Shown one piece after another: positions 46,829 to 64,000 of a DNA stretch of 64,000 bases (position 1 is its first letter; each line of letters starts with the position of its first letter). The DNA comes from Clostridia bacterium (lineage in GTDB: Bacteria; Bacillota; Clostridia; Oscillospirales; CAG-272), in assembly GCA_017621475.1 (NCBI GenBank), contig JAGATA010000039.1, positions 30,108 through 94,107 on the forward strand, written 5' to 3'. The notes below the pieces were generated by a model that made no database searches, was not told where the DNA came from, and saw only the letters and a program-made list of their open reading frames with translations. The translations under genes and the position numbers were made by a program.

Positions 46829-46933
46829 CGTTTTTCAGAGCGAAATATCGAGATACAAAAATGGAGATATAAAATCGCTATTTCCCCACAGTTCAGGGAT
46901 TTGAACTCTGTCGGGGCAGAATATCAGCCACCC

Positions 46934-46974
46934 AAGGCACATGGAAAAGAAAAATCCGTGTGCCTTTTTCTTTT
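46934..46974 (+). terminator. terminator-like hairpin in the leader of the first element gene
   Basis: AAGGCACATGGA/TCCGTGTGCCTT stem followed by TTTTTCTTTT, about 30 nt before ATG 47006. Confidence 0.45.
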
Positions 46975-47005
46975 GCCAAAAATAAAAAATCAGGAGGAAA
47001 AATAC

Positions 47006-47659
47006 ATGAGCATTTACCAAGAAGAAATGATGCGAAAGCTCCCGAAGCTCGGATGCACAGGAACGCTCGATGAAGCCACAGGAACGCTGTCGATCAGGCA
47101 GAACGGCGTACTCCTCTGTCGGCAGCTTGTGGACGGAACACTTCTCTATACTGATGATAAGGTTACCTCGCAGAACTTCGGTGACACCTTCACGGCGATC
47201 AGCGACGAAGCCTATCGCATCCGTGAATACGTGAATCTATATGAGCGATCCCCCAAGATGCCAATTCCCGAGGTCAGCCAATACCGAAAGTTCTCCGAAT
47301 ACGGCGATACCGTCCTCGCCGGAGCGTATGGCAGTCACGGGTTTCTATTTTGCACGTGGAAACAGGCGCGAAATGGAACGTATGTGGCGCACGGAGATTA
47401 TACGCCCGACTTTGAACACGCCAAGGAATCCTTCATCACCCGATCACAGCTCATGGACAAAAACAGGATGTTCAGCGAGGATGAGGCAAGCCTGCTCTAT
47501 CGGTGCATCGCCTACGTAAGAGATAACTGCGAATCGCTGACCTACGAACAGGATCAGAAGCTCGACGGTCTGATCGAAAAGCTGACCTACGGCTACCAAA
47601 GCCTTGCAGATGAACAACCGTCCTTCGATCAGGACAACACCCCACAATTAAAAATGTAA
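47006..47659 (+). CDS. hypothetical protein (element cargo)
   Basis: 217 aa from ATG 47006 (AGGAGG RBS 9 nt upstream). The track ORF 46709.. reads through the tRNA gene. Confidence 0.6.
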   Translation: MSIYQEEMMRKLPKLGCTGTLDEATGTLSIRQNGVLLCRQLVDGTLLYTDDKVTSQNFGDTFTAISDEAYRIREYVNLYERSPKMPIPEVSQYRKFSEYGDTVLAGAYGSHGFLFCTWKQARNGTYVAHGDYTPDFEHAKESFITRSQLMDKNRMFSEDEASLLYRCIAYVRDNCESLTYEQDQKLDGLIEKLTYGYQSLADEQPSFDQDNTPQLKM

Positions 47660-47666
47660 ATCACCC

Positions 47667-47711
47667 AAGCCAATCGTTTACGGAGTACGCTCCCAAACGG
47701 TTGGCTTTTTT
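47667..47711 (+). terminator. terminator
   Basis: AAGCCAATCGTTT/AAACGGTTGGCTT stem followed by a T-run. Confidence 0.6.
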
Positions 47712-47737
47712 CATTTTAACGAAAAGGAGATCAAAAT

Positions 47738-48427: not shown

Positions 48428-48838
48428 ATGGACTATTTCGAACATGAAATGCAAATGTTTTTCGGAGAGTCAGCACTCTTGTCGGCTGACACCGTATTCT
48501 CGCATCGCGCAATGGTCAGCGATATCGGCAAGGATCTCCGTGCCAAGGTAGAGTTCATCAACACCAAGATCGCCTCCCAATACGATGCTTTGAAGCTGTC
48601 CATCATCAACCGCACAATGGGCGTGGTGGACACACAGACATTCAAGTTTTCGGATATCATCGGCAAAAAGAACGGAAGCGATCCGTACATCTGGGAAAAC
48701 GACGGTACTGCCAAATGGTACGGATACCGTCCGAATGCCCTTGAATTTGAGCAAATCCAAGGAAAGGTCGAGGAATATATAGAAATGTATGCCGACCAAG
48801 AATTGAGATATCAAGGCCATACGATGGGAGGGATGTAA
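48428..48838 (+). CDS. hypothetical protein
   Basis: 136 aa with an AAGGAG RBS. Confidence 0.6.
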   Translation: MDYFEHEMQMFFGESALLSADTVFSHRAMVSDIGKDLRAKVEFINTKIASQYDALKLSIINRTMGVVDTQTFKFSDIIGKKNGSDPYIWENDGTAKWYGYRPNALEFEQIQGKVEEYIEMYADQELRYQGHTMGGM

Positions 48839-48841
48839 TAT

Positions 48842-49180
48842 ATGGCTGTGCTTTTTTCTGCGGTTACCGTAACCGCAGGTGATCAGGAAAAGGAATTCCT
48901 CGTAAGAGGGATTCCGAGAGAGCTTGGTGACATTGAGGGATATACCGCATTTGAAGAATTCATGGAGGATATCGACGAGGAAACCGAGGTCAGCGTTCAC
49001 GCCGAAGCCTATCTCTACGGCGAGGGCGAAACCTATACGGCAACCCTTGAAGAACTCGCCTATTTTTATCTGCGCATAGAGATGCGCGAGGATTTCCTCT
49101 CTACCCGATGCGACAACATCGAGGATGTGGATTTTACCTTCGGATGGTCGCCCGATGAACTATTCGGCATGAAAATGTAG
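48842..49180 (+). CDS. hypothetical acidic protein
   Basis: 112 aa, rich in Glu/Asp. Confidence 0.55.
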   Translation: MAVLFSAVTVTAGDQEKEFLVRGIPRELGDIEGYTAFEEFMEDIDEETEVSVHAEAYLYGEGETYTATLEELAYFYLRIEMREDFLSTRCDNIEDVDFTFGWSPDELFGMKM

Positions 49181-49189: not shown

Positions 49190-49330
49190 TTGGAGTATGA
49201 AATCATCATTCCCGACTCGCTGGTCGAGCAGCTTCTGATCGAAGCCGCCGAGCGAGAGGTCTCGGTCGAGGAAATCGTGACCGAAGCCATTCAAAAATTT
49301 ATAGAAAGGACTGAAAACATTGCCGACTAA
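49190..49330 (+). CDS. possible 46-aa ribbon-helix-helix protein (TTG start)
   Basis: Below the track's size cut-off. GTAGGAGGT RBS 5 nt upstream. The product (M)EYEIIIPDSLVEQLLIEAAEREVSVEEIVTEAIQKFIERTENIAD follows a beta-strand/helix/helix RHH pattern. Confidence 0.4.
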   Translation: MEYEIIIPDSLVEQLLIEAAEREVSVEEIVTEAIQKFIERTENIAD

Positions 49331-49847
49331 CGAAAAGAAAGGGATAACCGTCAAGATCGATGCAGAGCTTCATGCCGAGGTAAGGCAGTATTTGGAGCAG
49401 CACAGCATGACCATGGCAGACTTCGTCACGATGGCTCTGCAAGACGAGTTACATCCCAAAATTGAACAGAAAGAGGAAAAATCAATGGAAAAGATGCGTA
49501 CCTTGGCGTTTCAGGTACCGGAAGATCTGTTTCAAAAGATCAAGGATTACCTGCACCGCAACAATATGACACAGAGGCAGTTCGTCATCGGACTGATCGA
49601 AAACGAGATCGAGCGTGATCTCACCGAGCGACAGGCACAGACGGAGGCGCAAGAGCCGACCGAGGATCAGGACGAGGAAGAAACCGAGGAACTGACCGAA
49701 GATGCCGCAGAGGAAGAATATGAGGACGAGATCGAGGAATCGGAGGAAGAACTCGAAGATGAGGAATTGACCGAGGACGAGGAATCCGAGGAAGAAGAAC
49801 TCACCGAGGATGAGGAAGAAACCGAAGGAATGGTCATGAGAATGTGA
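49320..49847 (+). CDS. tandem RHH-like protein with a poly-acidic C-terminal tail
   Basis: Two RHH-like units (ITVKIDAELHAEVRQYLEQHSMTMADFVTMAL and LAFQVPEDLFQKIKDYLHRNNMTQRQFVIGLI), then about 65 residues that are almost all E/D/T with ELTED repeated three times. Confidence 0.6.
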   Translation: MPTNEKKGITVKIDAELHAEVRQYLEQHSMTMADFVTMALQDELHPKIEQKEEKSMEKMRTLAFQVPEDLFQKIKDYLHRNNMTQRQFVIGLIENEIERDLTERQAQTEAQEPTEDQDEEETEELTEDAAEEEYEDEIEESEEELEDEELTEDEESEEEELTEDEEETEGMVMRM

Positions 49848-49885: not shown

Positions 49886-51022
49886 ATGTCAAGACATGAG
49901 GCAATCCGATTTTTTGATATGTTTTCGGGGATCGGAGGATTCAGAAGCGGTCTTGAAGCTGTAGGCGGGTTTGAATGCATCGGTCATTGTGAGATCGACA
50001 GGCACGCCAACCAAGCATATAACGCAATCTATCAACCGAAAGGAGAATTTTACTGTGACGATGCACGAAAAATCAACCCCGAAACCATGCCCGACTTTGA
50101 CGTCCTCTGTGCCGGATTTCCTTGCCAAAGCTTCAGCGTTGCGGGAAAGCGGCTCGGATTCGACGATATGCGAGGCACTCTCATCTTTGAGGTTGCCCGA
50201 ATCATTGCAGCAAAACGGCCTGCATTTTTATTTTTGGAAAACGTCCCCGGCTTGCTATCGCATGACGGCGGCAGGACGCTTGATACCATCTTCTCCACGC
50301 TTGTTGAAATGGGGTATCATCTCGAATGGTGTGTGCATAACAGCAAACATTTCGGAGTCCCACAGCAACGGAGGCGATTGTATATTGTCGGATATCTTGA
50401 ACCAAGATGTGCCGGACAAATATTTCCTCTCGCCTGCGGCAATGCGCAAGCTCTCAAGCAACTTATCCCCGGACCGCAAGGACAGCGCGTCTACGAAACA
50501 GACGGAATAGCCTGCACCCAATGCGCGGGAGCAGGCGGTTGGGGCGGCAAGACAGGACTGTATTTTATAGACATGAATGTCAATCCCGTGATCACCGATC
50601 ACGCAAGGTGTATCACCGCCCGTCAGGATTCGGGCATCAGCAACCACCGAGGTGAACACTCGGCTGTGCTGATCGAGGACGAAGCTCCGAGAGCCATCCT
50701 CACTCCCGACCGAGAAACCGTCCGACAGCAAGGACGGCGCGTCAAAGAACCCGACGAGCCGATGTTCACCATCACAGCGCAAGACCGCCACGGCGTATGG
50801 CACAGAGGTCGCATCCGAAAGCTCATGCCCGTGGAATGTTGGCGGCTCCAAGGCTTTACGGACGAGCAGTTCCGCCGCGCCGAGGCGACAGGACTCAAGG
50901 ACGGACACCTATATAAAATGGCGGGCAATGCGGTCAGCGTTCCCGTCATTTCTGCTATAGGTAGAAAAATCCTTGCCTTCAACGAACAATATCAAATCAT
51001 AAAAGGAAGTGATGACCGATGA
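49886..51022 (+). CDS. dcm: DNA (cytosine-5)-methyltransferase
   Basis: Motifs I FSGIGG, IV GFPCQSFS, VI ENV, VIII QRRR and X GNAVSVPV. Confidence 0.9.
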   Translation: MSRHEAIRFFDMFSGIGGFRSGLEAVGGFECIGHCEIDRHANQAYNAIYQPKGEFYCDDARKINPETMPDFDVLCAGFPCQSFSVAGKRLGFDDMRGTLIFEVARIIAAKRPAFLFLENVPGLLSHDGGRTLDTIFSTLVEMGYHLEWCVHNSKHFGVPQQRRRLYIVGYLEPRCAGQIFPLACGNAQALKQLIPGPQGQRVYETDGIACTQCAGAGGWGGKTGLYFIDMNVNPVITDHARCITARQDSGISNHRGEHSAVLIEDEAPRAILTPDRETVRQQGRRVKEPDEPMFTITAQDRHGVWHRGRIRKLMPVECWRLQGFTDEQFRRAEATGLKDGHLYKMAGNAVSVPVISAIGRKILAFNEQYQIIKGSDDR

Positions 51023-51735: not shown

Positions 51736-51748
51736 GGAGGTGATTCCC

Positions 51749-53020
51749 GTGGCAAAAACAATCAAGATAGAACTCGCAAAGGAGAATCCCCAAGGCGTTG
51801 GATGGTTTTATGGTTACGTGGAACTGCCTGCCGAGGAACATGAGATTCGGGATGCCTATCAGAAAGCAAGGATCACAGATAATGATAATGCCTATCACGA
51901 CATCGCCATCCTCGATTGTCCGCGTCTGCCCGAACTCACGCAGATCAGGATCGACGGCGCGACCATCGACGAGCTGAACTTCCTTGCCAAACGGCTCGAC
52001 TCGCTGACCGACGAGGAATGCGATATCCTCGAAGCGGTTGCTCCCAAAATCATTCATGGAGATGAGGAAGAACTCGTCAGCATGAAAGACCTCATCAACC
52101 TTACCTACGGACTCGATGTGTCGGTGCTTTCAAATGTCGGCAACGATATCGAGCTTGGAAAGTTTGTGATTGAAAACGATCTTCATGAGGACGTGGCGGC
52201 GATCCCCGAACAGTCCTTATATCTGATCGATCCCGCCGCAGTCGGAAGGCTTCAGCGAGGCTTGGATGACGGCGTATATGTCAATGGTAAATATATCCTT
52301 GCAGGCGAATATGAACACCCAAAGGTATATGACGGTCAGCAGCTCCCGCAGAGCGACGTGTCCACTTGGTACGCTTTCCGTTTGGAGGTCACCTATCCGC
52401 CTATCTATGAGGATGACGAGCTGAACTCCAAGACGGTATGGCTCTCGCTCCCCGCAACCGAGGATGAGATCAAAGCGGTTACCGACGAACTCAGCATGAG
52501 CGATATCCGAAGCTGTGTATATTACGCCTTTGAATCCTCCGTCCCGCAGATCGAATCCGATCACTTCGGGGATATGCAGGACTTCGACTCGCTCAACAGC
52601 CTTGCGGAGATGATGGTAGAGATGACACCCGCCGATCAGGTCAAATTCAAAGCGGTACTCTCCGCCGAAGAACCATCCAAGATCGAGGATATCCTCGACA
52701 TCGCAAGAAATCTGCATCAATATGAGCATTCGTATATGGTGGACGATTCCTCGGACTTTTTCAGAGAATATATACTCCGCCACATGGACTCCCGCCTCGA
52801 CAGCCATTGGTTCGATACGCTCCTCACAAGAAACGAGGGCGACCGACTGCTCACACGGCTCGGAGCAACAGAAACCGATTACGGTGTTATCTCTGCCCGT
52901 GGGCGTTCTCTTTATGAGCTTGTCCCCTATGAGGAACAGCAGACCGAACAAGCGCAGACCGAGGATCAGGACGAGGACTTGGAGCAAGACCGAGGCATCC
53001 AACGCCTCACGATGAAATAA
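51749..53020 (+). CDS. large acidic protein, two ArdA-like (antirestriction) repeats suspected
   Basis: GTG 51749 sits 8 nt after AGGAGG; the track start is 51740. By-eye alignment to Tn916 ArdA in both halves: GWFYGYVELP..IDELNFLAKRLDSLTDEE in the first, and LSLPATEDEIKAV..LNSLAEMMVEMTPAD in the second. Confidence 0.5.
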   Translation: MAKTIKIELAKENPQGVGWFYGYVELPAEEHEIRDAYQKARITDNDNAYHDIAILDCPRLPELTQIRIDGATIDELNFLAKRLDSLTDEECDILEAVAPKIIHGDEEELVSMKDLINLTYGLDVSVLSNVGNDIELGKFVIENDLHEDVAAIPEQSLYLIDPAAVGRLQRGLDDGVYVNGKYILAGEYEHPKVYDGQQLPQSDVSTWYAFRLEVTYPPIYEDDELNSKTVWLSLPATEDEIKAVTDELSMSDIRSCVYYAFESSVPQIESDHFGDMQDFDSLNSLAEMMVEMTPADQVKFKAVLSAEEPSKIEDILDIARNLHQYEHSYMVDDSSDFFREYILRHMDSRLDSHWFDTLLTRNEGDRLLTRLGATETDYGVISARGRSLYELVPYEEQQTEQAQTEDQDEDLEQDRGIQRLTMK

Positions 53021-53043
53021 CCGACAGAAAGGAAAAAAACAAT

Positions 53044-53190: not shown

Positions 53191-53194
53191 CCCA

Positions 53195-53238
53195 AGACGG
53201 TATCAATCGCCCCGAAACGATTGATACCGTCTTTTTTT
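53195..53238 (+). terminator. strong rho-independent terminator
   Basis: 15-bp stem AGACGGTATCAATCG/CGATTGATACCGTCT followed by T7. Confidence 0.75.
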
Positions 53239-53272
53239 GTTTCGGGAGCGATGGATACCCCACGAAAGTGAG

Positions 53273-54259
53273 GTGATCACCATTAAAACCCCCGTTTCAA
53301 GGGTGGGCAACAAATCCTCGATCCTCCATATCCTCTATGCGGTGTTTCCACCGAAATACGGCAGATTTATCGACGTGTTCGGTGGCTCGGGCAGCGTACT
53401 GCTCGGTAAGCCGGAGATACATCCCTTTGAGGTGTATAACGATTTTGATCGCAACCTCGTCAATCTGTTCCGATGCATGAAGGAGAGGACGATGGCGACG
53501 ATCCGAGAGATCGGCTTCTGCAACCTCAACTCCCGTGAGGACTTCATAGCCATAAAGAGATTTTTTGAGCATGAAGCTTTTGACGATAAGTATATGAACG
53601 AGGAACTGCAGCTAACTGAGATACTGTTCCCACCGCCCGAAGCCAAGGAGCTTGCGGAGATACGCAGGCGTATCACCGAGAATCACGACGTGCGCCGTGC
53701 CGCGATGTTCCTCAAATTGCTCCGCTACAGCTATTCAAGCGGATGCAAATCCTTTGCCTCACAGCCCTGCGACATCCGCAGGCTGTTCGCTCTCATCCGA
53801 GAACTCGAAGATCGCATGGCAAACGTAGTGATCGAGAATCAGGACTTTGAAACCCTCATCAAGCACTACGACCGCCCCGATGCCTTCTTTTATGCCGATC
53901 CGCCCTACTACTCCACAGAGGATATGTATGCGGTAGGCTTCGGATGGGAGGATCACGTGCGCCTGCGGGATACGCTTGCAGGCATCAAAGGAAAGTTTCT
54001 CTTGTCCTATAACGACTGTCCCGAAATCCGTCAGCTTTACGAGGGCTTCTCGTTTTTCGATTTTTCAAGAGCGCATTCGATGGCACAGCGTTATGAGGCA
54101 GGCAAGGAATTCAAGGAGCTTCTCATAGCCAACTACGATCTGTATGAGAGAGAGCGAGAAAAGCCGAAGCAGCTCACGCTGTTCAGCGAAGTGGACAATG
54201 AATTCAACTACGAAAAAGTATTAAAGGAGTGTATTATTTCATGCAAAATCCGAAATTGA
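53273..54259 (+). CDS. N6-adenine DNA methyltransferase (Dam/D12 class)
   Basis: VGNKSS (GGK-like), DVFGGSGSV (motif I) and FFYADPPYY (DPPY). The track start 53237 lies inside the terminator, so GTG 53273 is preferred. The start remains uncertain. Confidence 0.85.
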   Translation: MITIKTPVSRVGNKSSILHILYAVFPPKYGRFIDVFGGSGSVLLGKPEIHPFEVYNDFDRNLVNLFRCMKERTMATIREIGFCNLNSREDFIAIKRFFEHEAFDDKYMNEELQLTEILFPPPEAKELAEIRRRITENHDVRRAAMFLKLLRYSYSSGCKSFASQPCDIRRLFALIRELEDRMANVVIENQDFETLIKHYDRPDAFFYADPPYYSTEDMYAVGFGWEDHVRLRDTLAGIKGKFLLSYNDCPEIRQLYEGFSFFDFSRAHSMAQRYEAGKEFKELLIANYDLYEREREKPKQLTLFSEVDNEFNYEKVLKECIISCKIRN

Positions 54260-54462: not shown

Positions 54463-54762
54463 ATGGCCAAATTACTCCGAATCCTCGGTAAGAGAGGAAG
54501 AATCACCATCCCCTATGAGATCAGACAGAAGGTAGGCTTCGCCTATAACGACGTGCTGTCCTTCACCGAGGGCAGCGACGGCAGAACTGTCATCGTCCGC
54601 AGAGAGCGCATCTGCGACTGTGAAAAGGCAAAACCCGTAAAAAAGGACGATGAGGTCACCCTCCTCGATTTCCTCAATGGTCTCTCTCCCGAACAGCAAA
54701 GAGCCGCGCTTGTGCATCTGTCCGTGATGTGGGCAGAAAAACAGGGCGGTTTTTTTGTATAA
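54463..54762 (+). CDS. AbrB/SpoVT-domain protein
   Basis: GKRGRITIPYEIRQKVGFAYNDVLSF. Confidence 0.65.
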   Translation: MAKLLRILGKRGRITIPYEIRQKVGFAYNDVLSFTEGSDGRTVIVRRERICDCEKAKPVKKDDEVTLLDFLNGLSPEQQRAALVHLSVMWAEKQGGFFV

Positions 54763-54875
54763 AAGCATACCGAAAAAGCGAGGTGATGATAAATATGGCG
54801 CGATGCTCCCGTCCCGAATCCAAGCTAAGAACGGAGGTAACACAGCATGAACAGAAAGAGATGGAGAGGCGCATG

Positions 54876-55214
54876 ATGAAGAAAGTATATATCTGTGCGC
54901 CCCTCGGAGGCAATGTCAGCGAGAACCTCGAACTCGTCAAGACCTATACCGAATATGCCCTCAAGTGCGGAACGGCTCCTGTCGTCCCGCATTTTTACGC
55001 TCTCTGCCTCGATGACAGTATCGAAAAGGAGCGCGAGATCGGCATGGCGGCAGGGCTGAGCCTTTTGTGGTTCTGCGACGAAATGTGGATCTTCGGGGAT
55101 GAGGTGACCGAAGGTATGCAGGCAGAAATCCGCTTCTGCCAAAACCTCAATATCAAAATGAAGAAAATCCGCTACCACGAAATCAACAAAAAGATCGGAG
55201 GAAAAAGAATATGA
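54876..55214 (+). CDS. DUF4406-like (nucleoside deoxyribosyltransferase-fold) protein
   Basis: MKKVYICAPLGG...PHFY...DEMWIFG pattern. ATG 54876 lies 6 nt after GGAGAGG. Upstream in-frame starts (54795, 54861) remain possible. Confidence 0.6.
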   Translation: MKKVYICAPLGGNVSENLELVKTYTEYALKCGTAPVVPHFYALCLDDSIEKEREIGMAAGLSLLWFCDEMWIFGDEVTEGMQAEIRFCQNLNIKMKKIRYHEINKKIGGKRI

Positions 55215-55573
55215 ATAAGATCATGAAGAACAAGAAGCTCGCAAAGCTCCTCATCTGCGTGGCAATGGTCGCGCTCCTCGTTTCCATCATGTCGGTTTCC
55301 GCTTTCGCCGCGACTCCCACGGGTGACGTTGCCGGAGCCGTCGAGGACACATGGAACTCTGCCAAGGGGCAGATCAAGCAGGTGACCAACAATGTCATCT
55401 TTCCCATTGTGGACTTGATCCTTGCCATCCTTCTGTTCGTGAAGCTCGGTACGGCATACTTTGATTATCGCAAGCACGGTCAGTTTGAATTCACCGCACC
55501 TGCCATTTTGTTCGCCTGCCTTGTGTTCACGCTCACCGCACCCCTTTATATTTGGAACATCATCGGCATCTGA
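55211..55573 (+). CDS. VirB2/TrbC-like small T4SS membrane protein
   Basis: 120 aa with a signal peptide (..MSVSAFAA) and two hydrophobic helices, lying directly upstream of the VirB6-like gene. Confidence 0.55.
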   Translation: MNKIMKNKKLAKLLICVAMVALLVSIMSVSAFAATPTGDVAGAVEDTWNSAKGQIKQVTNNVIFPIVDLILAILLFVKLGTAYFDYRKHGQFEFTAPAILFACLVFTLTAPLYIWNIIGI

Positions 55574-55643: not shown

Positions 55644-56576
55644 ATGTTTGATTGGCTTCAAGATCTGATCGACGGGATCACCGATGCCATAGCAAACGCC
55701 TTCAGCGGGATAGGTCAGCAGATCTCAAACACGATATGGAACACGATGATGAAATGGTTTTACGAAACCATATACGGCGCGGTTGCCGACTTCTTTACGA
55801 TGATGGGCAACATGGGCGCGGAGATATTCGACCTCAAATGGGTGCAAGCCACCGTCCATCTGTTTACGCTCTTCGGATGGGCGTTGTTTATCGCAGGCGT
55901 TGTCGTTGCCATCTTCGACGTGGCAATTGAATATCAAAGCGGCAGAGCGAATATCAAAAATACCGTTCTCAATATTCTCAAGGGATTTTTTGCGTGTTCG
56001 CTGATCGGCGTTGTTCCCATAGAGCTATATCGTTTCTGCATCTCTCTGCAAAACACCTTCTCCCATGACCTCTCAAGGCTGTTTGCAAACGGTCAGTCGG
56101 TGGACATTGCCGACATGAGCCTGCGTGTGCTGACAGGAGGATTCCAAGGTGCGGCGACACAGTCAAGCCTGCTCAATATTCTTGTGCTGATTGCATTTGC
56201 GTACTGCGTGGTCAAGATATTTTTCCAAAATATCAAGCGCGGAGGCATTCTGCTCGTGCAGATGTCGGTGGGAGCGTTGTATATGTTCTCCGTACCGAGA
56301 GGATATACGGACGGCTTCGTGCAATGGATGAAGCAAGTGGCAGCGATCTGCCTCACGGCATTTATGCAGACAACCCTATTGTTCCTCGGACTCATCACCT
56401 TCCCCGGAAATATGCTCCTCGGACTCGGCATTATGCTTGCGGCTAACGAAGTGCCTCGCATTGCACAGCAGTTCGGACTCGATTCCTCGGTCAAGGTCAA
56501 TATGATGAGCGTTGTTCACGCAACCACCACGGCGGTCAATCTGACTCGCTCTGTGGCAAAAATTGCGGGCAGATAA
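55644..56576 (+). CDS. VirB6/TrbL-like polytopic T4SS protein
   Basis: 310 aa with at least 5 TM helices, in the T4SS operon position. Confidence 0.6.
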   Translation: MFDWLQDLIDGITDAIANAFSGIGQQISNTIWNTMMKWFYETIYGAVADFFTMMGNMGAEIFDLKWVQATVHLFTLFGWALFIAGVVVAIFDVAIEYQSGRANIKNTVLNILKGFFACSLIGVVPIELYRFCISLQNTFSHDLSRLFANGQSVDIADMSLRVLTGGFQGAATQSSLLNILVLIAFAYCVVKIFFQNIKRGGILLVQMSVGALYMFSVPRGYTDGFVQWMKQVAAICLTAFMQTTLLFLGLITFPGNMLLGLGIMLAANEVPRIAQQFGLDSSVKVNMMSVVHATTTAVNLTRSVAKIAGR

Positions 56577-56587: not shown

Positions 56588-56848
56588 ATGACAAGATTTT
56601 TGTACCCGCAGAACCTCAAGGCCAAGGCAAATATGTGGCTTTGGGGAATGCGGGATTTTATTATTCTCGCCATCGGCGCACTGCTCTCGGTAGTGGCGGC
56701 GGTGGAGCTTGGATGGCTGATTCCCGGAGCAGCAACCCTCTGCTTCGGATTCCTCACCATCCGCAAGGATGATATGACCATCCTTGACTTTATCAAATAC
56801 GCCGTGCGGTACTTCATATCCGCACAGCAATATTACGAATGGAGGTGA
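56588..56848 (+). CDS. PrgI/VirB3-like small T4SS membrane protein
   Basis: 86 aa with 2 TM helices, immediately before VirB4. Confidence 0.6.
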   Translation: MTRFLYPQNLKAKANMWLWGMRDFIILAIGALLSVVAAVELGWLIPGAATLCFGFLTIRKDDMTILDFIKYAVRYFISAQQYYEWR

Positions 56849-56854: not shown

Positions 56855-57469
56855 GTGGCAAAGAAGAAAACGCAGTCAAAAACTGCCCCGCAGACAAAGA
56901 AAAAAGGCGCGTCGGTGCAGGATCTCATCGGCATCAAGACCTTCACCGATTACGGCATCGTCACAAACCGTGGCGAGCTGTTATATTACCTCGTAACCCC
57001 CACCAACATCTCGGTGCTGTCGGCGGCGAATATTGAGAATAAGATTAGGCAACTCAAACTCGTCCTCTCCACCGAAACCGACATTGAGATCACCGTCACC
57101 GACTCCTCGGAGTGCTTCGATGACAACAAGCTCTACCTCATGGACAGGATCGAGCAAGAGCCGAATCTCAAGGTCAGGAGCCTGCTCGAAAAGGACATCA
57201 CCTTCCTCGATGCGGTGCAGATGGAGATGTCGACGGCGCGACAGTTTATCTTTACGGCACGATGCCGTAACCTCAAGCCGTCTCAGGTGTTCAAGAGAGC
57301 CAACGAGATCGAAAAGACCATCTCCGAGCAGGGCTTCGAGGTTCACCGTATGAAAAAACAAGAGATCAAGAGATTCCTCGCTCTGTATTTTGAGGCATCC
57401 ATGCAGGGCGAGCTGATGTCGGATGCCGACGGCATTCAGTATCTCGACGAAGAAGGAGGCGATGCGTAA
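56855..57469 (+). CDS. VirB4 N-terminal-domain-like protein (separate ORF)
   Basis: 204 aa. SVQDLIGIKTFTDYGIVTNRGELLYYLVTPTNISVLS resembles the N-terminus of single-chain Gram-positive VirB4 ATPases. TAATG overlap with the next ORF. Confidence 0.6.
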   Translation: MAKKKTQSKTAPQTKKKGASVQDLIGIKTFTDYGIVTNRGELLYYLVTPTNISVLSAANIENKIRQLKLVLSTETDIEITVTDSSECFDDNKLYLMDRIEQEPNLKVRSLLEKDITFLDAVQMEMSTARQFIFTARCRNLKPSQVFKRANEIEKTISEQGFEVHRMKKQEIKRFLALYFEASMQGELMSDADGIQYLDEEGGDA

Positions 57470-59301
57470 TGTTTAAGAGAAAGCCCAAGGTGCTGACCGA
57501 GGAACAGTTGGAGGAAATCCGCACAAAGGACTTCTTCGACTGTATCCTCCCCGGCACGATCAAGTTTATGACCGACCATTATATCGTAGGCGACAGCTAT
57601 CGCTCGGCGTGGGTGATTCGTGAGTATCCGCCCTCCACCGAGGAACTGGCGATCCTCTCGTCCCTTGCCGATAAAAGCGGTGTTACGCTCCGCATCTATC
57701 ACCGTCTCGTCGAACACATGGAGCAGAGGCGCATCATTCAGAATGCCACCCGCAAGAACAAGATGAAGCGCGTTGCCGATGACGTGAACGATGCCATCGA
57801 GGCCGAGGGCAACCTTCAGGACGTGATGGAGCTTGCCGCCACCCTCAACCGCAACAAAGAACCGCTTCTGCATTGCTCGGTGTTCATCGAGCTGAAGGCC
57901 AAGAGCCTCGAATCCCTCAAGGAATTGCAGAGCGAGGTTGGCATGGAGCTGACCCGCGCCAAGATTTCGGTGGACAGACTGACTCTCCGACAGAAAGAAG
58001 GATTTTTATCTGTTCTGCCCGTGGGCTCGAATCAGTTCGGCGCACAGTATGAGCGCGTACTGCCTGCAAGCTCGGCGGCAAACTTCTATCCCTTCAACTA
58101 TTCGGGCAAGACCGACTCCCACGGCTTGTATATCGGGCGTGATAAATACGGCACAAACATCCTTGTGGACTTCGACAAGCGTGCCGAGGATAAGACCACA
58201 AGCAATATCCTCATTCTCGGAAACAGCGGTCAGGGCAAGAGCTATCTCATGAAGCTGTTGCTCACCAACCTCCGTGAATCCGGCAAGAGCATCATCTGCC
58301 TTGATCCCGAAGCGGAATACGAGGATCTGTGCGTAAGCCTCGGCGGTTGCTATATTGATTTCCTTTCAGGAGCATATACCATCAACCCGCTTGAACCCAA
58401 GGCGTGGAGCGATGGCACGGAGGACACCGAGAGCGACTCCCCCGAAGCATTCAGAAAGGTAACGCGCCTGTCACAGCACATCGCATTCCTCAAGGACTTT
58501 TTCCGTTGCTATAAGGAATTCAACGACAGTCAGCTCGACACCATCGAAATCCTCCTCGCAAAGCTGTATGCGAGATTCGGCATCACCGATTTTACCGACT
58601 ATGATAAGCTCCGCCCCACCGACTATCCCACGATGGAGGACTTCTATCATCTGTGCGAGGAAGAATATATGACCTACGATAAGCAGAGGAAATACCTCTA
58701 TACCGAGGAAACTCTGCAGGAGGTCTGCCTCGGCATCAACTCCATGTGCGTCGGCTCGGAGAGCAAGTATTTCAATGGTCACACCAATATCACCGACGGC
58801 GACTTCCTCTGCTTCGGAGTCAAAGGACTCATGGACAGCAACAAACGCCTCAAGGATGCGATGCTGTTCAACATTCTGTCCTTTATGAGCAATCAGCTCC
58901 TCGGCAAGGGCAACACCGTGGCATCGGTGGATGAGCTGTATCTGTTTCTCACCAACATGACCGCCATTGAGTATATCCGTAACTGCATGAAGCGCGTCCG
59001 CAAGAAGAACTCCTCTGTGGTGCTGGCGTCGCAGAACATTGAGGACTTCCTCATTCCGAGCATCCGAGAATTCACAAAGCCTCTGTTCAGCATTCCCACA
59101 CACCACTTCCTCTTCAATGCCGGGCAGATCAATCCCAAGGAATATATGGATGCCCTGCAGGTCGAGCCGAGCGAATTCGAGCTGATCAAGTATCCCGAAA
59201 GAGGAACTTGTCTCTACCGTTGCGGAAACGAGAGGTATCTGCTTCAGGTCAAAGCTCCCGACTATAAGGCGGCGCTCTTTGGAAAGGCGGGTGGGCGTTA
59301 A
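57469..59301 (+). CDS. VirB4-family conjugal transfer ATPase (ATPase part)
   Basis: Walker A GNSGQGKSYLMK. 610 aa. Confidence 0.85.
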   Translation: MFKRKPKVLTEEQLEEIRTKDFFDCILPGTIKFMTDHYIVGDSYRSAWVIREYPPSTEELAILSSLADKSGVTLRIYHRLVEHMEQRRIIQNATRKNKMKRVADDVNDAIEAEGNLQDVMELAATLNRNKEPLLHCSVFIELKAKSLESLKELQSEVGMELTRAKISVDRLTLRQKEGFLSVLPVGSNQFGAQYERVLPASSAANFYPFNYSGKTDSHGLYIGRDKYGTNILVDFDKRAEDKTTSNILILGNSGQGKSYLMKLLLTNLRESGKSIICLDPEAEYEDLCVSLGGCYIDFLSGAYTINPLEPKAWSDGTEDTESDSPEAFRKVTRLSQHIAFLKDFFRCYKEFNDSQLDTIEILLAKLYARFGITDFTDYDKLRPTDYPTMEDFYHLCEEEYMTYDKQRKYLYTEETLQEVCLGINSMCVGSESKYFNGHTNITDGDFLCFGVKGLMDSNKRLKDAMLFNILSFMSNQLLGKGNTVASVDELYLFLTNMTAIEYIRNCMKRVRKKNSSVVLASQNIEDFLIPSIREFTKPLFSIPTHHFLFNAGQINPKEYMDALQVEPSEFELIKYPERGTCLYRCGNERYLLQVKAPDYKAALFGKAGGR

Positions 59302-59846
59302 TGGCGGCACCCGCCCTCATACCGATCATCAAAAAGGTTGCGACCTATATTGCGACCAACCCCAAAGCACTCAAAAAGGTGGTCGGGATCGTGATCGGAG
59401 TGGTGGTGATTATCGCCATGCCGATCATTGCGCTCCTCGGAATTTTTACGGGAGGTGTGGATCTCAATATAGACCGATTGCAAGAGATGATCGTGGAGAA
59501 CCAATCCTCGGCATCTGGCGTGATGACCGAGATCGAGGAAAAGATGCTGTCCGCAGGATATAGCCATCTGAATGTCAAGGAGGCGCAGGCGATTTATTCG
59601 CTTGCGCTCTTCACCCGTGGCTCGGAGGAAGGATTTACGGATACGCTCGTCGGATGCTTCTCGGAAGGACAGAGTGATGAGGATCTCATCGCAAAGGTCA
59701 ATGCAGCCTTCGGTACGAACATCCTCGCTTCGGATTTTACCTCTGCCGTGCGGAAAATGCGCGATGAGCATATCGAACCCGAACCGCCTCCCGAAGAAAC
59801 AGAGCTGCCCGACACAAATGAAACGGAGGTGACCACAGCACCATGA
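59301..59846 (+). CDS. membrane-anchored T4SS-associated protein, no hydrolase domain seen
   Basis: 181 aa with a TM helix (VVGIVIGVVVIIAMPIIALLGIF) and a Pro/Glu-rich tail. TAATG coupling. Confidence 0.5.
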   Translation: MAAPALIPIIKKVATYIATNPKALKKVVGIVIGVVVIIAMPIIALLGIFTGGVDLNIDRLQEMIVENQSSASGVMTEIEEKMLSAGYSHLNVKEAQAIYSLALFTRGSEEGFTDTLVGCFSEGQSDEDLIAKVNAAFGTNILASDFTSAVRKMRDEHIEPEPPPEETELPDTNETEVTTAP

Positions 59847-60949
59847 CAGACAGAAGAAAAACAGAACTCCTCGGTAACTTTATTGGATGGTTTCTCGATC
59901 ACCAAACGAGCGATGAGGGATTGTTCCGTGACCTCCACGTGGAGATCGGGATGACCAAGGATGAATTGCACGACTTCAGCATCGACAGCCTCGACGAGCT
60001 GTTCGACCGAGCAGAAAAAGAACACCAAAAGGAGATCGAGGAAACCGCCGACACTATCACAGCCGAGGACTTGGTGGAGCAAGCCGTCTATGCCGCCAAC
60101 GCTCCCGACTTTCTCACCGAGGAAGAACAGGCTGAGGATATGCTCGGAATGCTCGGCGCAAATATTATGGACGAGGGCTTGCAGACGGTGGACTCGCAGA
60201 GTCTGATTGCTTCTGCCGTTGCCGATCTCGTCATCAAGCAAAGCATCGAGGATCAGACCGAAGGTCGCTATACGCTGACAGCCGATACGCTCCACAAGTT
60301 ATCGAATGGCAAGATGATGGCTCCTACGGTCATCGAGGATCTTCTGCTCGATAGAAAAGAGATCGAACTCATCGAGGGCAATTGGGAAACCGACGAACTC
60401 TATCTCTACCTTGCGCCGGAGTACGTTCGCATGGAGGACGAGAGCGATCTGCGGTCATTGAGTCAGGAAGAAGTGGAGGCGATGTGCGCCGACCATGTCC
60501 TATGGCTGAACGATGCAGGCGGCAAGCAAGCCGACTTCTCAAACTGCGTGATCCGTGGAATGGATCTGTCGCTGAAGAATCTCATGAACGCAAACTTCAA
60601 CGGAGCGAAGCTGGCAGAGGTCAATCTCTATCGCACTGAGCTGAATTTTTCCGACTGCGAGGGCGCGAAGTTTTATAACTGTCATGCCGAGGGTGTGTAC
60701 TCCGAGGAAGTCAGCTTCAAGGATGCGGTGTTCCGCAACTCACAACTCTTTGGCGGTATGTTCACACACAGCAATTTCAGCAACGCACAGTTCAATGCCT
60801 GCGATCTCTGCTACGCAAGCCTGCAAAACTGTTGCCTCGACGGAACAGACTTTGGAGATTCCATCTGCGATCAGATGAGCAGACGCGGGTGCAGCTACGA
60901 TGAAGAAGCGTGGACGGCTCACGCGCTATCTCCCAATCTCAAAATGTAA
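59843..60949 (+). CDS. pentapeptide-repeat protein with an acidic N-terminal domain
   Basis: The C-terminal ~150 aa are A(D/N)LxX repeats: ADFSNCVIRGMDLSLKNLMNANFNGAKLAEVNLYRTELNFSDCEGAKF... Confidence 0.8.
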   Translation: MTDRRKTELLGNFIGWFLDHQTSDEGLFRDLHVEIGMTKDELHDFSIDSLDELFDRAEKEHQKEIEETADTITAEDLVEQAVYAANAPDFLTEEEQAEDMLGMLGANIMDEGLQTVDSQSLIASAVADLVIKQSIEDQTEGRYTLTADTLHKLSNGKMMAPTVIEDLLLDRKEIELIEGNWETDELYLYLAPEYVRMEDESDLRSLSQEEVEAMCADHVLWLNDAGGKQADFSNCVIRGMDLSLKNLMNANFNGAKLAEVNLYRTELNFSDCEGAKFYNCHAEGVYSEEVSFKDAVFRNSQLFGGMFTHSNFSNAQFNACDLCYASLQNCCLDGTDFGDSICDQMSRRGCSYDEEAWTAHALSPNLKM

Positions 60950-60961
60950 GGAGTGATCACT

Positions 60962-61228
60962 ATGAAGAAAACAACCATCAGCGTGTCCTTCGAGGACGAG
61001 AAGCTCTCCGCGCTCAAGATGTATCTTGAACAGCGTGGGCAGACGGTCGAGGGCGAACTCGAAAAGGCTCTCGACACTCTCTACGCCAAGACCGTGCCTG
61101 CGGGTGTTCGTGAGTTCCTCGATCTGCGTTCAGGAGTCGTGCCGACTCCTCCCAAGGCGAAGAAGCCGAAACCTCCCACAGCCTCTGCCGAGAGTAATTC
61201 CGACGAGAACAAGGGCGCGGATCAGTAA
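60962..61228 (+). CDS. small conserved ICE protein with a Lys/Pro-rich tail
   Basis: MKKTTISVSFEDEKLSALKMYLEQRG... AAGGAG RBS 8 nt upstream. Confidence 0.55.
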   Translation: MKKTTISVSFEDEKLSALKMYLEQRGQTVEGELEKALDTLYAKTVPAGVREFLDLRSGVVPTPPKAKKPKPPTASAESNSDENKGADQ

Positions 61229-61591
61229 CCGCCCGTGAGCCACCGTGTCGCCCCGTGTGGCGATTTGGAGGACGAGGTCGGGCAAACACCCAAGAGAGGC
61301 AAAACGAGCGCAAATGAGGCGATTTGCGAGAGGTACGGAGAGAGCGAAAATCGGGCAGTATTACGCTGTCCGATTGGATTGCAGGAATAAGCGCAGGGGT
61401 TGCAAAGCACCCTCTGCGCCTCTCACAGCAGACGGCAATGCCGACTGCACAAGGACTTTTTACGCCTCAACGCCAAGGGGTTGCAAATCGCCCGTTTTTA
61501 CGGTCAAGGAGTCACGAAATACGAAAGCGTAAGCGTGGCGTGGCATTATGCGGGGGTTGTACCCGTAAATACGGCAGAAAGGAGAAAAAAC
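61229..61591 (+). promoter_or_regulatory. candidate oriT / relaxosome promoter region
   Basis: 363-bp non-coding gap upstream of the RHH-relaxase pair, with several inverted and direct repeats (see findings). Confidence 0.4.
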
Positions 61592-61999
61592 ATGGCCAAT
61601 CCAAAGGATAAGCAGAAATTCGCCCTATGGACATATCCCGAAACCATGAAAAGAGTGGAAACGCTCTACCGTGATGACGGATGCAAGAGCAAGTCAGAGT
61701 TCATAGAAAAGGCGATCAATTTTTATTGCGGATACCTAACCGCAGAAAACTACCGTGAGTATTTTCCGTCCGTCATCCTCTCTACCGTCAAGGGTACGCT
61801 CGACAGCTTTGAGAATCGCATGGCAGGATTGCTGTTCAAGATGGCGGTGGAGCTTTCGATGATGCTCCATGTCACGGCAGCCAACAGCGAGATCGACGAG
61901 GACAGCCTCACACAACTGCAAGGTCTCTGTGTCAGCGAGGTCAAGCGGCTCAACGGCAAGGTGTCCTTCGAGGATGCCCGTAGGTTTCAGAAAGGATAG
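61592..61999 (+). CDS. RHH-type relaxosome accessory protein (MobC-like position)
   Basis: 135 aa. KFALWTYPETMKRVETLYRDDGCKSKSEFIEKAINFY has an RHH pattern. It lies directly upstream of the relaxase. Confidence 0.6.
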   Translation: MANPKDKQKFALWTYPETMKRVETLYRDDGCKSKSEFIEKAINFYCGYLTAENYREYFPSVILSTVKGTLDSFENRMAGLLFKMAVELSMMLHVTAANSEIDEDSLTQLQGLCVSEVKRLNGKVSFEDARRFQKG

Positions 62000-62004
62000 T
62001 ACCG

Positions 62005-64000
62005 ATGGCACGAATGATTTTGAAGTGGCGGTATATCAAAGCGGGTACGCCGAAGCACGGAGAGCATCTCGTAAAATATATTGCTACGCGCGAGGGCGTT
62101 GAGAAATGCGATGAGTCGTGGAAGCATCAGAACGCTACCGTTGAACAGGGGCGGCTCATCGCAAAGCTCATCCGTGACTTTCCCGAAGCCAAGGACAGCT
62201 TTGAGTATCAGGATTACTGTGAAAGCAAAACGAAATATAACGCCTCGGAGTTCATCAGCCGAACCATCGACGAGAACGTGGATCTCATCGGACGAAAAGA
62301 AAACTACGTTGGCTACATCGCCATGCGACCGCGCGTGGAGAAGCTCGGCTCTCACGGGCTGTTCTTCCAAGACGATACGCCCATCAATCTATCCGAGGTA
62401 TCGAAAACGGTTTCCGAGCATCAAGGTCTCGTCTGGACCACCGTGATCTCTCTGCGCCGTGAGGATGCCGAAAGGCTCGGCTACGATAACGCCAAGGCGT
62501 GGCGGGATATGCTTCGCAGTCAGGCAGATAAGCTTGCGGGTAGCATGGGCATCCCCCTTGCCGATCTGCGTTGGTATGCAGCCTTTCACAACGAGGGCAA
62601 CCATCCTCACATCCACCTCATATCTTACTCGGTCGGCAAAGAGCCGTACATGACCGAGCGAGGACTGGTGAAGATGAAAGCCAACTACGCTCACGAAATA
62701 TTCAAGCAAGACCTATACCACATCTACCGTGAGCAGACGGCGCACCGAGATGAGCTGAAGCGCGTGAGCAAGGCGCAGATCGCCTCGATCATCGAAGCCA
62801 TCAACCGCGGAGCTTATGAAAATGAAACCGTCGAGCTGATGCTCCGTCAGTTTGCTGACAAGCTAAAGGATTACTCCGGCAAAAAGGTGTACGGATACCT
62901 TCCGAAGTCCTGCAAAAATCTTGTGAACGGTATCGTGGATGAACTTGCCAAGGACGAGAGGATCGCAAAGCTCTATGACCTATGGTACGAGCAGAAAGAA
63001 AATATCCTCAAGACCTATACGCAGACCATGCCCGAAAGGATTCCGCTGTCACAAAACGAAGAATTCAAAAGCATACGCAATGCCATCGTCACCGAAGCGT
63101 TCAACCTTGCCCTCGGTCTTGACGTTGTGGAAGAACCCGAAGAAGAAGAAAGCATCCCCGACCGAGAGCCGACCGAGGATGAGGTGGAACAAGATGAGGA
63201 TCAAGAGCCGAAGAACAAATGGGAGCTGTACCGCAGAGCCAAGGAACTGCTCGACGATGACAGCGAGGACTACGATCCCAACCGCGCGGTGGAATATCTT
63301 ATTGACTCTGCAAAGCAGAACAATCCCGTCGCAAAATATCTGCTCGGCAAGCTGTTCCTCAAAGGCGAACACGTTCCGAAGAACGCAGACTACGCTCTGC
63401 GATGGCTCGAAGAAGCAGCGGAGGACGGCAATCCCTTTGCCGAATATCTCCTCGGCAAGACTCTGCTCAAGGGCGAGGACTGCGATCAGGATACCGAGAG
63501 AGCCGCGGATCTGCTCCGCCGATCTGCGGATCAAGGCAACCGCTATGCGGCATATACCCTCGGCAAGGCTTTGCTCGACGGAGATGTCCTTCCGCAAGAT
63601 ATTCCCGAGGCCATTCGATTGCTGAAAGAGTCAGCCGACAGCGGTTTCTCCCAAGCGCAGTATGTTCTCGGAAAACTGTTGTACCGTGGAGAACTGACCG
63701 AACAGGACATCCCGAAAGCTCTTGAATATCTTGAAAGAGCCTCGGCGCAGAAAAATCCCTATGCCGCCTACCTTGCGGGAAAGATCAGACTGACCGAGGA
63801 CGCACACAAGGACATCGCCAAAGCCATACGGCACTTCGAGATTGCCGCCAAAGAAGGGAACGACTACGCCGAATACCAACTCGGCAAGCTCTATCTCTAC
63901 GGCAAGGACATCCCGCAAGACTACGATAAGGCAATTGAGTATCTGACCGCCTCTGCGGAACACGGAAACAAGTACGCCGATCAGCTTCTCCACAACATAA
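62005..64000 (+). CDS. conjugative relaxase (MobL/MOBP-like histidine triad) fused to C-terminal Sel1-like repeats; 3' end lies beyond the window
   Basis: Absent from the track because it runs off the window. It is open from ATG 62005: MARMILKWRYIKAGTPKHGEHLVKYIATREGV...FHNEGNHPHIHLISYS. From ~63.25 kb it carries at least 6 Sel1 units, e.g. NPVAKYLLGKLFLKGEHVPKNADYALRWLEEAAEDG. Confidence 0.8.
   Translation, partial: MARMILKWRYIKAGTPKHGEHLVKYIATREGVEKCDESWKHQNATVEQGRLIAKLIRDFPEAKDSFEYQDYCESKTKYNASEFISRTIDENVDLIGRKENYVGYIAMRPRVEKLGSHGLFFQDDTPINLSEVSKTVSEHQGLVWTTVISLRREDAERLGYDNAKAWRDMLRSQADKLAGSMGIPLADLRWYAAFHNEGNHPHIHLISYSVGKEPYMTERGLVKMKANYAHEIFKQDLYHIYREQTAHRDELKRVSKAQIASIIEAINRGAYENETVELMLRQFADKLKDYSGKKVYGYLPKSCKNLVNGIVDELAKDERIAKLYDLWYEQKENILKTYTQTMPERIPLSQNEEFKSIRNAIVTEAFNLALGLDVVEEPEEEESIPDREPTEDEVEQDEDQEPKNKWELYRRAKELLDDDSEDYDPNRAVEYLIDSAKQNNPVAKYLLGKLFLKGEHVPKNADYALRWLEEAAEDGNPFAEYLLGKTLLKGEDCDQDTERAADLLRRSADQGNRYAAYTLGKALLDGDVLPQDIPEAIRLLKESADSGFSQAQYVLGKLLYRGELTEQDIPKALEYLERASAQKNPYAAYLAGKIRLTEDAHKDIAKAIRHFEIAAKEGNDYAEYQLGKLYLYGKDIPQDYDKAIEYLTASAEHGNKYADQLLHNI

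Follow-up and report, generated by a model that had tools for sequence, protein, structure and literature searches.

A probable integrative conjugative element of about 39.5 kb, ending in three serine recombinase genes, beside an initiator tRNA-Met gene in gut Clostridia

What is the GC-rich block of genes that begins beside a pair of tRNA genes in the genome of a Clostridia bacterium, where does it end, and which enzyme could have brought it there? These questions are raised by a window of 64,000 nucleotides (Oscillospirales, CAG-272; assembly GCA_017621475.1, contig JAGATA010000039.1, positions 30,108 to 94,107 of the forward strand), in which the block occupies the right-hand part and runs beyond the edge. 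Our study interprets it, with a probability of roughly 80%, as part of an integrative conjugative element (ICE) of about 39.5 kb from gut Clostridia, which lies immediately 3' of the CCA end of an initiator tRNA-Met gene and has its left 17.2 kb inside the window. The host is uncultured and, to judge from sample labels and from the titles of related records, probably lives in the gut of ruminants. The features of the window are collected in Table 1, and the other sequences used in the comparisons are cited by their L numbers.

The composition of the window changes sharply where the block begins. The 23 windows of 2 kb in the host part have a GC content of 0.420 +/- 0.027 (maximum 0.487) and the eight 2-kb windows after 47 kb one of 0.517 +/- 0.011 (minimum 0.497), with zero overlap between the two sets of values (Mann-Whitney p = 3.6e-5); the step toward GC-rich DNA that the initial annotation had described near 46.83 kb is thus reproduced by computation (0.42 to 0.52). 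The GC content at third codon positions is 0.54-0.72 in the genes of the element versus 0.29 and 0.48 in two flanking host genes, and the GC of the entire element is 0.49 versus 0.419 in the host part. The left host flank, which encodes a valyl-tRNA synthetase (ValRS) and a diacylglycerol-kinase-family protein (DAGK), has host-level GC. All 23 genes between 47006 and 64000 lie on the + strand, six of their junctions being overlaps of 1, 4, 11 or 19 nt and the other gaps mostly measuring 13 nt or less, in agreement with the tightly coupled, one-strand block that had been described. Within the host part of the window, local GC also rises to 0.46-0.49 at 18001-20000 and at 28001-33000.

To locate the left end, we aligned the DNA found 5' of the first element gene in the window with nine copies from other samples and, later, with one JGI contig (L134). 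In seven independent contexts the element starts at the base that follows the tRNA CCA, which in the window is the position 46770|46771, and the junction reads ...CCA|TCAAAGGGCGATAAAAAAGATATCGCC.... Right of this junction, identity is 96-98% in L128-L133 and 88% in L125, and L134 diverges once a few hundred nucleotides have passed; upstream of the tRNA, identity in those copies where it was measurable (L131-L133) is 44-74%, the higher values being due to the conserved tRNA-Leu gene. The left edge had been set at 46831, at the tRNA pair; the tRNA as integration locus is upheld by this alignment, but the boundary lies 60 nt further to the left, at 46771.

The second tRNA of the pair (46693-46770) is an initiator tRNA-Met, as had been proposed, because it shows the C1xA72 mismatch together with three G:C pairs (GGG/CCC) in its anticodon stem. 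The initiator gene is the target in at least four backgrounds (the window, L131, L132, and L133): in L131 the element adjoins it with no tRNA-Leu present, and in L132 and L133 it follows a Leu-fMet pair in which the tRNA-Leu gene is divergent and before which the DNA is unrelated. Other tRNAs are also used. In L125 the neighbour is a tRNA-Gln(CTG) next to a capsule/LytR locus, L128 has a Gln-like 3' end at this place, and in L134 the element adjoins a non-initiator tRNA(CAT). The 3' strands of the acceptor stems vary between these insertion contexts, and therefore the tRNA's own 3' end is not replaced and the crossover would lie at or just after the CCA. It could be argued that the true left boundary is further left and includes the tRNA gene in the element, since a tRNA always precedes the conserved sequence. 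We consider this hardly credible: the tRNAs vary in identity (fMet, Gln, other CAT) and in sequence although the adjoining element DNA is 96-98% identical in the copies most alike, the DNA upstream of them is unrelated between contexts, and in the window they come after the host genes for DAGK and ValRS, at host GC.

The first nucleotides of the element contain a hairpin (46800-46827) that a terminator scan scores as an intrinsic terminator directly past the tRNA gene. Although it had earlier been placed outside the element, it is element DNA, and at about 46936-46970 there is another hairpin, with a T run behind it. A contig break at 46814 that leaves 55 nt shared with L123 (46760) was considered as a branch point between attachment sites; length variants of the T run in the hairpin loop (L126, L133) explain it better, and it was not used as evidence.

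In order to follow the element beyond the window, we used scaffold_657 of ERZ28654748 as its continuation, since it is 100% identical to the window over 58091-64000 and 99.99% identical over 37738-58415. Downstream of the 721-aa relaxase, this scaffold encodes a DUF3991-Toprim protein, a VirD4 coupling protein, an HTH_36 protein, a DUF6809 protein, and a 279-aa tyrosine recombinase; these are followed by a nonribosomal peptide synthetase (NRPS) cluster, a response regulator, an HTH_3 repressor, and a sigma-70-family protein and, near the right end, by a PemK toxin and three adjacent genes for large serine recombinases (518, 304, and 545 aa). An Rfam pemK RNA motif (55.6 bits) is located 5' of the toxin gene (L104 13212-13327). 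The GC content falls from about 0.51 to about 0.30 directly past the third serine recombinase gene, beyond which lie chromosomal genes (LD-carboxypeptidase, pseudouridine synthase, and dehydrogenases). As had been noted from the window proteins, the window itself contains no recombinase, coupling protein, or hydrolase; the expectation that a recombinase, a coupling protein, and a right end would be found downstream was borne out on the extended scaffold, as was the estimate that at least as much DNA again would lie there (about 22.3 kb beyond the window versus 17.2 kb inside).

The right terminus was located by comparison with a close relative recovered in other studies (L119-L121). Its terminal recombinase belongs to the same 90%-identity cluster, and its regulator, toxin, and recombinase end is 94% identical in DNA to that of our element; its cargo differs (Hsp70/DnaJ-like, TM2, and JAB proteins), and its right flank has no protein similarity to the right flank found here. 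The homology between both right ends stops 109 nt past the recombinase stop codon, after TATAATATA, and therefore the right terminus lies at about 86268 in window-equivalent coordinates, so that the element spans 46771 to about 86268 (about 39.5 kb, of which 17.2 kb are inside the window). An outward promoter-like site (ATGACT-17-TATAAT, with an extended -10 TG) lies 3 nt from this terminus (L104 18241-18269 region), and a loosely similar layout is present in a distant relative (L099). In both known contexts, a host gene begins 26-79 nt past this site. The two tips of the element, with a terminator on the left and an outward promoter on the right, may repair the transcription units that the insertion interrupts.

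It is important to note that an insertion of this kind could be mimicked by an assembly that joins DNA of two organisms at a repeated tRNA, and several contigs (L003, L004, L005, and scaffold_2618 at its start) do break at the tRNAs or close to them. Two factors leave such an assembly artefact with next to no likelihood. First, each junction was found in at least three independent assemblies: the left one is identical in the window, in scaffold_657, and in k141_298100 (ERZ28018929), and the right one occurs in scaffold_657, in k141_233626, and in several Logan contigs, which come from different samples and assemblers. Second, scaffold_657 is continuous and runs unbroken from host flank through the element into host flank.

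The gene content of the element is that of a conjugation system. The initial annotation had recognized VirB2-like, VirB6-like, and VirB4 proteins, a ribbon-helix-helix (RHH) protein, a relaxase, and DNA methyltransferases, and we obtained family matches for each of them, those of the RHH and VirB2-like proteins being weak. Its proposal of a PrgI/VirB3-like gene stands in part: a membrane protein does occupy that position, but this 86-aa protein has zero matches to Pfam or NCBIfam families, and the VirB3-like label comes from its position, size, and hydrophobicity. The pilin candidate (DUF3852) has a pilin-like topology, with an N-terminal hydrophobic leader and two hydrophobic helices. The TrbL protein, the pilin-like protein, and the small proteins of the transfer region matched no NCBIfam model. 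All three signature proteins of an ICE are present, namely a MobP3 relaxase, a VirD4 coupling protein, and a VirB4-type ATPase. The relaxase matches PF18555 (MobL, E = 2e-27), its full-length form, taken from L100, matches the NCBIfam MobP3 model (371 bits vs a cut-off of 150), and the VirD4 protein reaches the cut-off of the NCBIfam CD1115 model (253.7 vs 250 bits).

The VirB4 function is likely divided between two translationally coupled genes, in an arrangement that is conserved rather than the product of an error. The alignment of the 610-aa ATPase covers positions 284-893 of 894 and 179-729 of 752 in the NCBIfam VirB4 models, and the gene before it encodes a 204-aa protein that would supply the N-terminal domain. 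This small protein has 838 representative homologues, and the best 150 of them are mostly stand-alone proteins of about 190-280 aa, none of VirB4 length; a frameshifted VirB4 N-terminus was therefore ruled out. Its AlphaFold2 (AF2) model (pLDDT 86.8) has as its top Foldseek matches the TrwK/VirB4 chains of R388, at a weak level (E = 3.5e-3, probability 0.99, TM 0.40). The largest intergenic gap of the transfer region (61229-61591) is the candidate oriT, a suggestion drawn from its inverted repeats, and the 135-aa protein encoded between this gap and the relaxase is possibly a relaxase accessory factor.

Several observations weigh against a complete, mobile ICE. No peptidoglycan hydrolase or VirB8-like protein was detected by family matches (Pfam, NCBIfam) in any element protein, which is the chief ground for caution on self-transmissibility, and the slot that an M23 peptidase holds in L099 is filled here, by synteny, with the pentapeptide-repeat protein. 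The VirB4 ATPase lies under the cut-offs of the named NCBIfam families (CD1110: 172 vs 325). The right terminus is based on two contexts only, and one left-end copy (L126 2691-3006) has no tRNA, its homology starting about 30 nt inside the element (window 46801), which could be a secondary-site insertion or a rearrangement. The terminal serine recombinases are assigned as integrating enzymes from their position and family only. Contigs that carry the exact left- or right-flank protein either have filled junctions or end at the tRNAs, no empty site was recovered from JGI data with a 39-mer of a host-specific promoter, and scans with the left-terminal 28-mer recovered one further attL (L134) and no excised junction (attP). 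Since neither an empty site nor a circle was found, the case for mobility is made by comparison, that is, by near-identical ends in unrelated contexts, the exchange of cargo, and sharp boundaries of homology and composition.

These same observations could be read as signs of decay, in which case the block would be a defective ICE or a mobilisable element that integrates and excises by itself but depends on the mating pore of another element: the hydrolase and the VirB8-like protein are undetected, the hydrolase slot is otherwise occupied, VirB4 is split and scores under its family cut-offs, and neither the excised form nor the empty site was seen. Nevertheless, the genes for the relaxase, VirD4, the VirB4 ATPase, VirB6, and the pilin-like protein are intact and translationally coupled, the two-gene VirB4 is conserved among its many homologues with no frameshift, and several proteins to which no function is assigned could fill the missing roles. 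In addition, left ends that are 96-98% identical in at least five unrelated host contexts argue for recent movement. We therefore regard a decayed or non-autonomous derivative as unlikely. With respect to the pentapeptide-repeat protein, which occurs as variants of 445 and 291 aa in other copies of the element, the possibility that it is a diverged form of the L099 M23 hydrolase was ruled out, given that there is zero similarity between the two.

Which enzyme integrates the element? The three serine recombinase genes (L104 14114-18163) are adjacent and in one orientation, an arrangement that is repeated in L099 and in L119-L121. The first and the third proteins have the Resolvase, Recombinase, and Zn ribbon domains with an intact YCRVS catalytic motif. 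The middle 304-aa paralogue (L104 15667-16581, about 83.7-84.6 kb window-equivalent) has the Recombinase domain only, and its alignment with the first protein is confined to residues 175-499 of the latter; PF00239, the catalytic Resolvase domain, was not found in it, nor in its counterpart in L099. This distant relative has 36-62% protein identity to our element, the same gene order from DUF6103 to HTH_36, and a terminal trio of 548, 327, and 553 aa whose middle member (17328-18311) likewise lacks the catalytic domain. Each position of the trio is orthologous to that of L099, so the trio looks ancestral. The two middle proteins are only 26% identical, and because the loss of the catalytic domain has been kept at this distance, the middle paralogue looks functional and may act as an accessory or directionality factor.

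From their terminal position and their family, the serine recombinases would be the enzymes that integrate the element. The initial annotation had suggested looking for a direct repeat of the left junction at the far end, and no long one is present: exact words of 12 nt or more shared with window positions 46560-47010 are absent from the approximately 8 kb of downstream DNA that were searched, where only matches of 11 nt or less, at chance level, occur, and the right junction shares at most ATCAA with the left one. This absence fits serine recombinases, because these leave a short core only. A candidate crossover dinucleotide is AT (46770-46771), the sole dinucleotide that fits both junction windows, for which two right junctions only were available; the predicted attB is ...CTCCGCAACCAT|ATCAAGAATCTATTC... 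and the predicted attP is ...TTATGATATAATAT|CAAAGGGCGATAAAAAAG....

The 279-aa Xer-like tyrosine recombinase (L006 18348-19455, equal to L104 194-1300 with its adjoining switch, about 68.2-69.3 kb window-equivalent) offers a different answer, in which the block would be a classical tRNA-targeting island with this enzyme as the integrase acting within the tRNA 3' end. Such ends are the usual targets of tyrosine integrases, and the gene does lie within the element; nonetheless, this explanation is very improbable. The gene is separated by about 20 kb from the tRNA and by 17 kb from the element's right end, no link to transfer genes was found for its relatives in 78 of 80 genomes, and it adjoins a promoter segment flanked by inverted repeats that occurs in both orientations (21 genomes like this element vs 4 inverted). 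Moreover, the far end carries no repeat of the tRNA end of 12 nt or more, and the acceptor stems vary between contexts, which speaks against replacement of the tRNA 3' end. For these reasons, namely a family unlinked to transfer genes and a location beside an invertible segment, an element of about 22 kb with this recombinase as integrase was also rejected.

Returning to the serine recombinases as integrating enzymes, we tentatively propose, at somewhat less than even odds, that the trio recognizes the generic 3' end of a tRNA gene (T-loop, acceptor strand, and CCA) and can thus target several tRNAs without damage to them, the middle paralogue serving as a targeting or directionality subunit and the ends of the element supplying a replacement terminator and an outward promoter. 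Along the element the modules lie in the order antirestriction and establishment genes, a minimal mating pore, DNA processing, a variable cargo slot, regulators with PemK, and the serine trio. For such an element we propose the following cycle. The serine recombinases would excise the element as a circle, the relaxase would nick oriT, possibly at 61229-61591, and VirD4 together with the type IV secretion system (T4SS) would export one strand into a recipient. There, the antirestriction protein and the methylases would protect the incoming DNA, while priming of the complementary strand may be the task of the Toprim protein. Integration of the circle by the recombinases would follow, at a tRNA gene's CCA end and duplicating little or nothing, leaving the terminator of the element just past the tRNA and its outward promoter-like site at the right tip.

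The closest parallels in architecture are found in streptococci, where ICEs with serine integrase triplets at one extremity have mutT, traG, or hsdM as their target, which the insertion disrupts, and leave repeats of 2-8 bp, their integrases falling into external, middle, and internal clades (PMC4701971, Ambroset et al. 2016). Almost all serine integrases of streptococcal mobilisable elements insert within genes (PMC5357655), and in the streptococcal surveys a tRNA-end target is reported only for tyrosine integrases (PMC4701971, PMC5357655). Our element shares with the streptococcal triplet ICEs the three adjacent serine recombinases in the same orientation at one extremity of a T4SS-type ICE, orthologous trio positions (here versus L099), and little or no direct repeat. 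It differs from them in three respects: the family described here inserts just past the tRNA CCA and leaves the tRNA intact whereas theirs disrupt protein-coding genes, the middle gene here (304 aa) has no Resolvase domain, and the conjugation module is another one, made up largely of DUF families.

Attachment sites that overlap tRNA genes have been described as typical of tyrosine integrases. In the scheme of Williams 2002 for tyrosine-integrase islands, insertion also occurs at the tRNA 3' end and leaves the tRNA functional; here, however, no tyrosine integrase lies beside the tRNA, the sole one being part of a promoter switch in the middle of the element, the tRNA 3' end is not repeated over 15-50 bp at the far junction, the junction lies at the CCA itself, and several tRNAs are used. 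The transfer genes resemble the CD1110/CD1115 modules of Clostridioides difficile type in a VirD4 that just reaches the CD1115 cut-off, in a VirB4 ATPase whose second-best match is CD1110 (after the Mbov_0397 VirB4 family), and in being a Firmicutes T4SS with TrbL and pilin-like genes; they differ from them in that VirB4 scores 172, under the 325-bit cut-off, and probably has its N-terminal domain in a separate gene.

The N-terminal domain of the relaxase matches MobL and MobP3, as in the MOB_L/MobP3 relaxases of Firmicutes plasmids, but its C-terminal part is a Sel1/TPR repeat domain. MobL (PF18555) relaxases are linked with pLS20. Among annotated plasmids, the sole full-length relative of our relaxase, at 34.5% identity, is encoded by an 8.1 kb plasmid of Subdoligranulum variabile (OY725859.1). 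ICEs of the Tn916/ICEBs1 type share with this element an integrated state, one gene orientation, an antirestriction gene, and, presumably, single-strand transfer; they have an FtsK/TcpA-type coupling protein, a MobT relaxase, a tyrosine integrase, and an essential cell-wall hydrolase and, to our knowledge, no VirB2-like or VirD4 genes.

The element is therefore ordinary in kind, an ICE with a serine recombinase triplet, although the pairing of recombinase and target is unusual and the details of its mating pore and cargo are atypical, and current understanding is not overturned by it. Gene flow in gut Firmicutes depends on ICEs to a major extent, and most of those in uncultured Clostridia have not been described; this one is now delimited at both ends. 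The same element end lies beside at least three kinds of tRNA, which, if confirmed, would be of interest for engineering large serine recombinases to new targets, and a generic recognition of tRNA ends, if true, would mean that a tRNA-targeting strategy has been reached by the "wrong" recombinase superfamily. The element also provides an example of a pared-down mating-pore set, with a two-gene VirB4 and no recognisable hydrolase, and of a secondary-metabolite locus, an NRPS with an invertible promoter, that is both horizontally mobile and probably phase-variable.

This last locus deserves a closer description. Its cluster encodes a 1916-aa NRPS, a 356-aa protein, a free-standing adenylation enzyme, a carrier protein, and a phosphopantetheinyl transferase. 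The tyrosine recombinase gene beside it is low in GC, and its family comprises at least 7,957 clusters (E <= 1e-60), with 188 relatives among the species-representative genomes scanned. DNA conservation extends about 190 nt beyond its stop codon. Of 30 loci compared, 27 have inverted repeats with the core ACCACATAAT about 20 and about 255 nt past the stop, and the other three are contigs that end at the recombinase gene. The segment enclosed by the repeats (ACCACATAATGCGGATTAAGTGGT / ACCACTTAATCCGCATTAAGTGGT) measures about 195 bp here and about 230 bp in related genomes. It lies just before the NRPS gene, and in the orientation found here its promoter (TTGACA-17-TATACT) is directed away from this gene, whereas two terminator-like hairpins on the other strand are directed toward it. 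Judged from these features, the segment is probably an invertible promoter with its own invertase that controls the NRPS cluster and is in the OFF orientation here. All nine near-identical copies of the switch have one orientation, and inversion in the population of this element was not seen among them. The module of recombinase and switch is very abundant in gut Clostridia. In L046 (3619-12243; GTDB metagenome-assembled genome CALWJX010000097.1), which carries a related transfer module, about 6.2 kb with the same unit sits exactly between the homologues of the 204-aa gene and of the VirB4 ATPase, an arrangement that suggests that the unit of switch and cargo is itself mobile or exchangeable.

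The leading region of the element, which precedes the transfer genes, encodes establishment and antirestriction functions and is described in Table 1 together with the remaining features of the window. The gene for the D12-class methyltransferase is preceded by a gap of 252 nt (region 53021-54259), and the protein has been called as 255, 328, or 340 aa in near-identical assemblies; this variation in length reflects either an uncertain start or a small sequence difference between assemblies.

Table 1. Features at the left end of the element and along its part inside the window.
Feature	Coordinates	Strand	Evidence and remarks
tRNA-Leu(TAA), host flank	46584..46672	+	ARAGORN; Rfam tRNA, 52 bits
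Initiator tRNA-Met(CAT) including encoded CCA, integration target	46693..46770	+	ARAGORN, Rfam
Left junction (attL)	46769..46772	.	Conserved block starts CCA|TCAAAGGG in all tRNA-adjoining copies
Left terminal non-coding region	46771..47005	+	96-98% identical in copies with unrelated upstream flanks; terminator scan
g01, 217 aa, first element gene	47006..47659	+	No Pfam match; 23 homologous clusters, the closest with 307 members
g02, 225 aa	47738..48415	+	Weak DUF6075 match
g03 (136 aa) and g04 (112 aa), no assigned function	48428..49180	+	
g05, 175 aa, weak RHH-type (RepB-RCR_reg)	49320..49847	+	E = 3e-4, exactly at the curated cut-off of 21.0 bits
Orphan C5 cytosine DNA methyltransferase	49886..51022	+	PF00145, E = 1e-77
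g07, 238 aa	51019..51735	+	Weak Imm51-like match, under the curated cut-off
ArdA-like antirestriction protein	51740..53020	+	PF07275, 42.6 bits vs cut-off 27
Orphan D12-class N6-adenine DNA methyltransferase	53237..54259	+	PF02086, E = 1e-23
AbrB/MazE-fold small DNA-binding protein	54463..54762	+	PF04014, 26.4 bits vs cut-off 24.7
DUF7768 protein	54795..55214	+	PF24963, E = 1e-31
DUF3852, VirB2/TrbC-like pilin candidate	55211..55573	+	PF12963, E = 2e-46; weak TrbC match, E = 0.005
TrbL_5, VirB6-type channel protein	55644..56576	+	PF19511, E = 1e-128; at least 4 hydrophobic segments
86-aa membrane protein in VirB3/PrgI position	56588..56848	+	Hydrophobic residues 18-51
204-aa stand-alone protein, probable VirB4 N-terminal domain	56855..57469	+	1-nt overlap with next gene
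VirB4-type ATPase without N-terminal domain, 610 aa	57469..59301	+	Pfam P-loop_TraG, AAA_10, DUF87
181-aa protein with N-terminal membrane anchor	59301..59846	+	Hydrophobicity
368-aa protein with C-terminal pentapeptide repeats	59843..60949	+	PF00805, E = 1e-15
DUF6103 protein	60962..61228	+	PF19598, E = 2e-16; kept before the relaxase module in L099
Largest intergenic gap of the transfer region, oriT candidate	61229..61591	.	Inverted repeats 61349-61375 and 61380-61430
135-aa protein before relaxase	61592..61999	+	Order kept and 44% identity in L099; no family match
Relaxase, MobL/MobP3 N-terminal domain and Sel1 repeats	62005..64000 (cut by window end)	+	Full length 721 aa

Finally, the chromosomal side of the right junction has characteristics of its own. 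The first three genes of the right flank (512 aa, a 701-aa TPR protein, and 207 aa; L112 10001-14319, about 86.35-90.7 kb window-equivalent) have a GC content of 0.28-0.36 versus 0.42 in the host, and an older island, inserted earlier at this site, is a possible source of them; the 512-aa protein, which has no assigned function, belongs to a cluster of only 4 members. In addition, a non-coding stretch of 70 nt is 91% identical between L112 14522-14591 and L119 13149-13218, whose flanks are otherwise unrelated.

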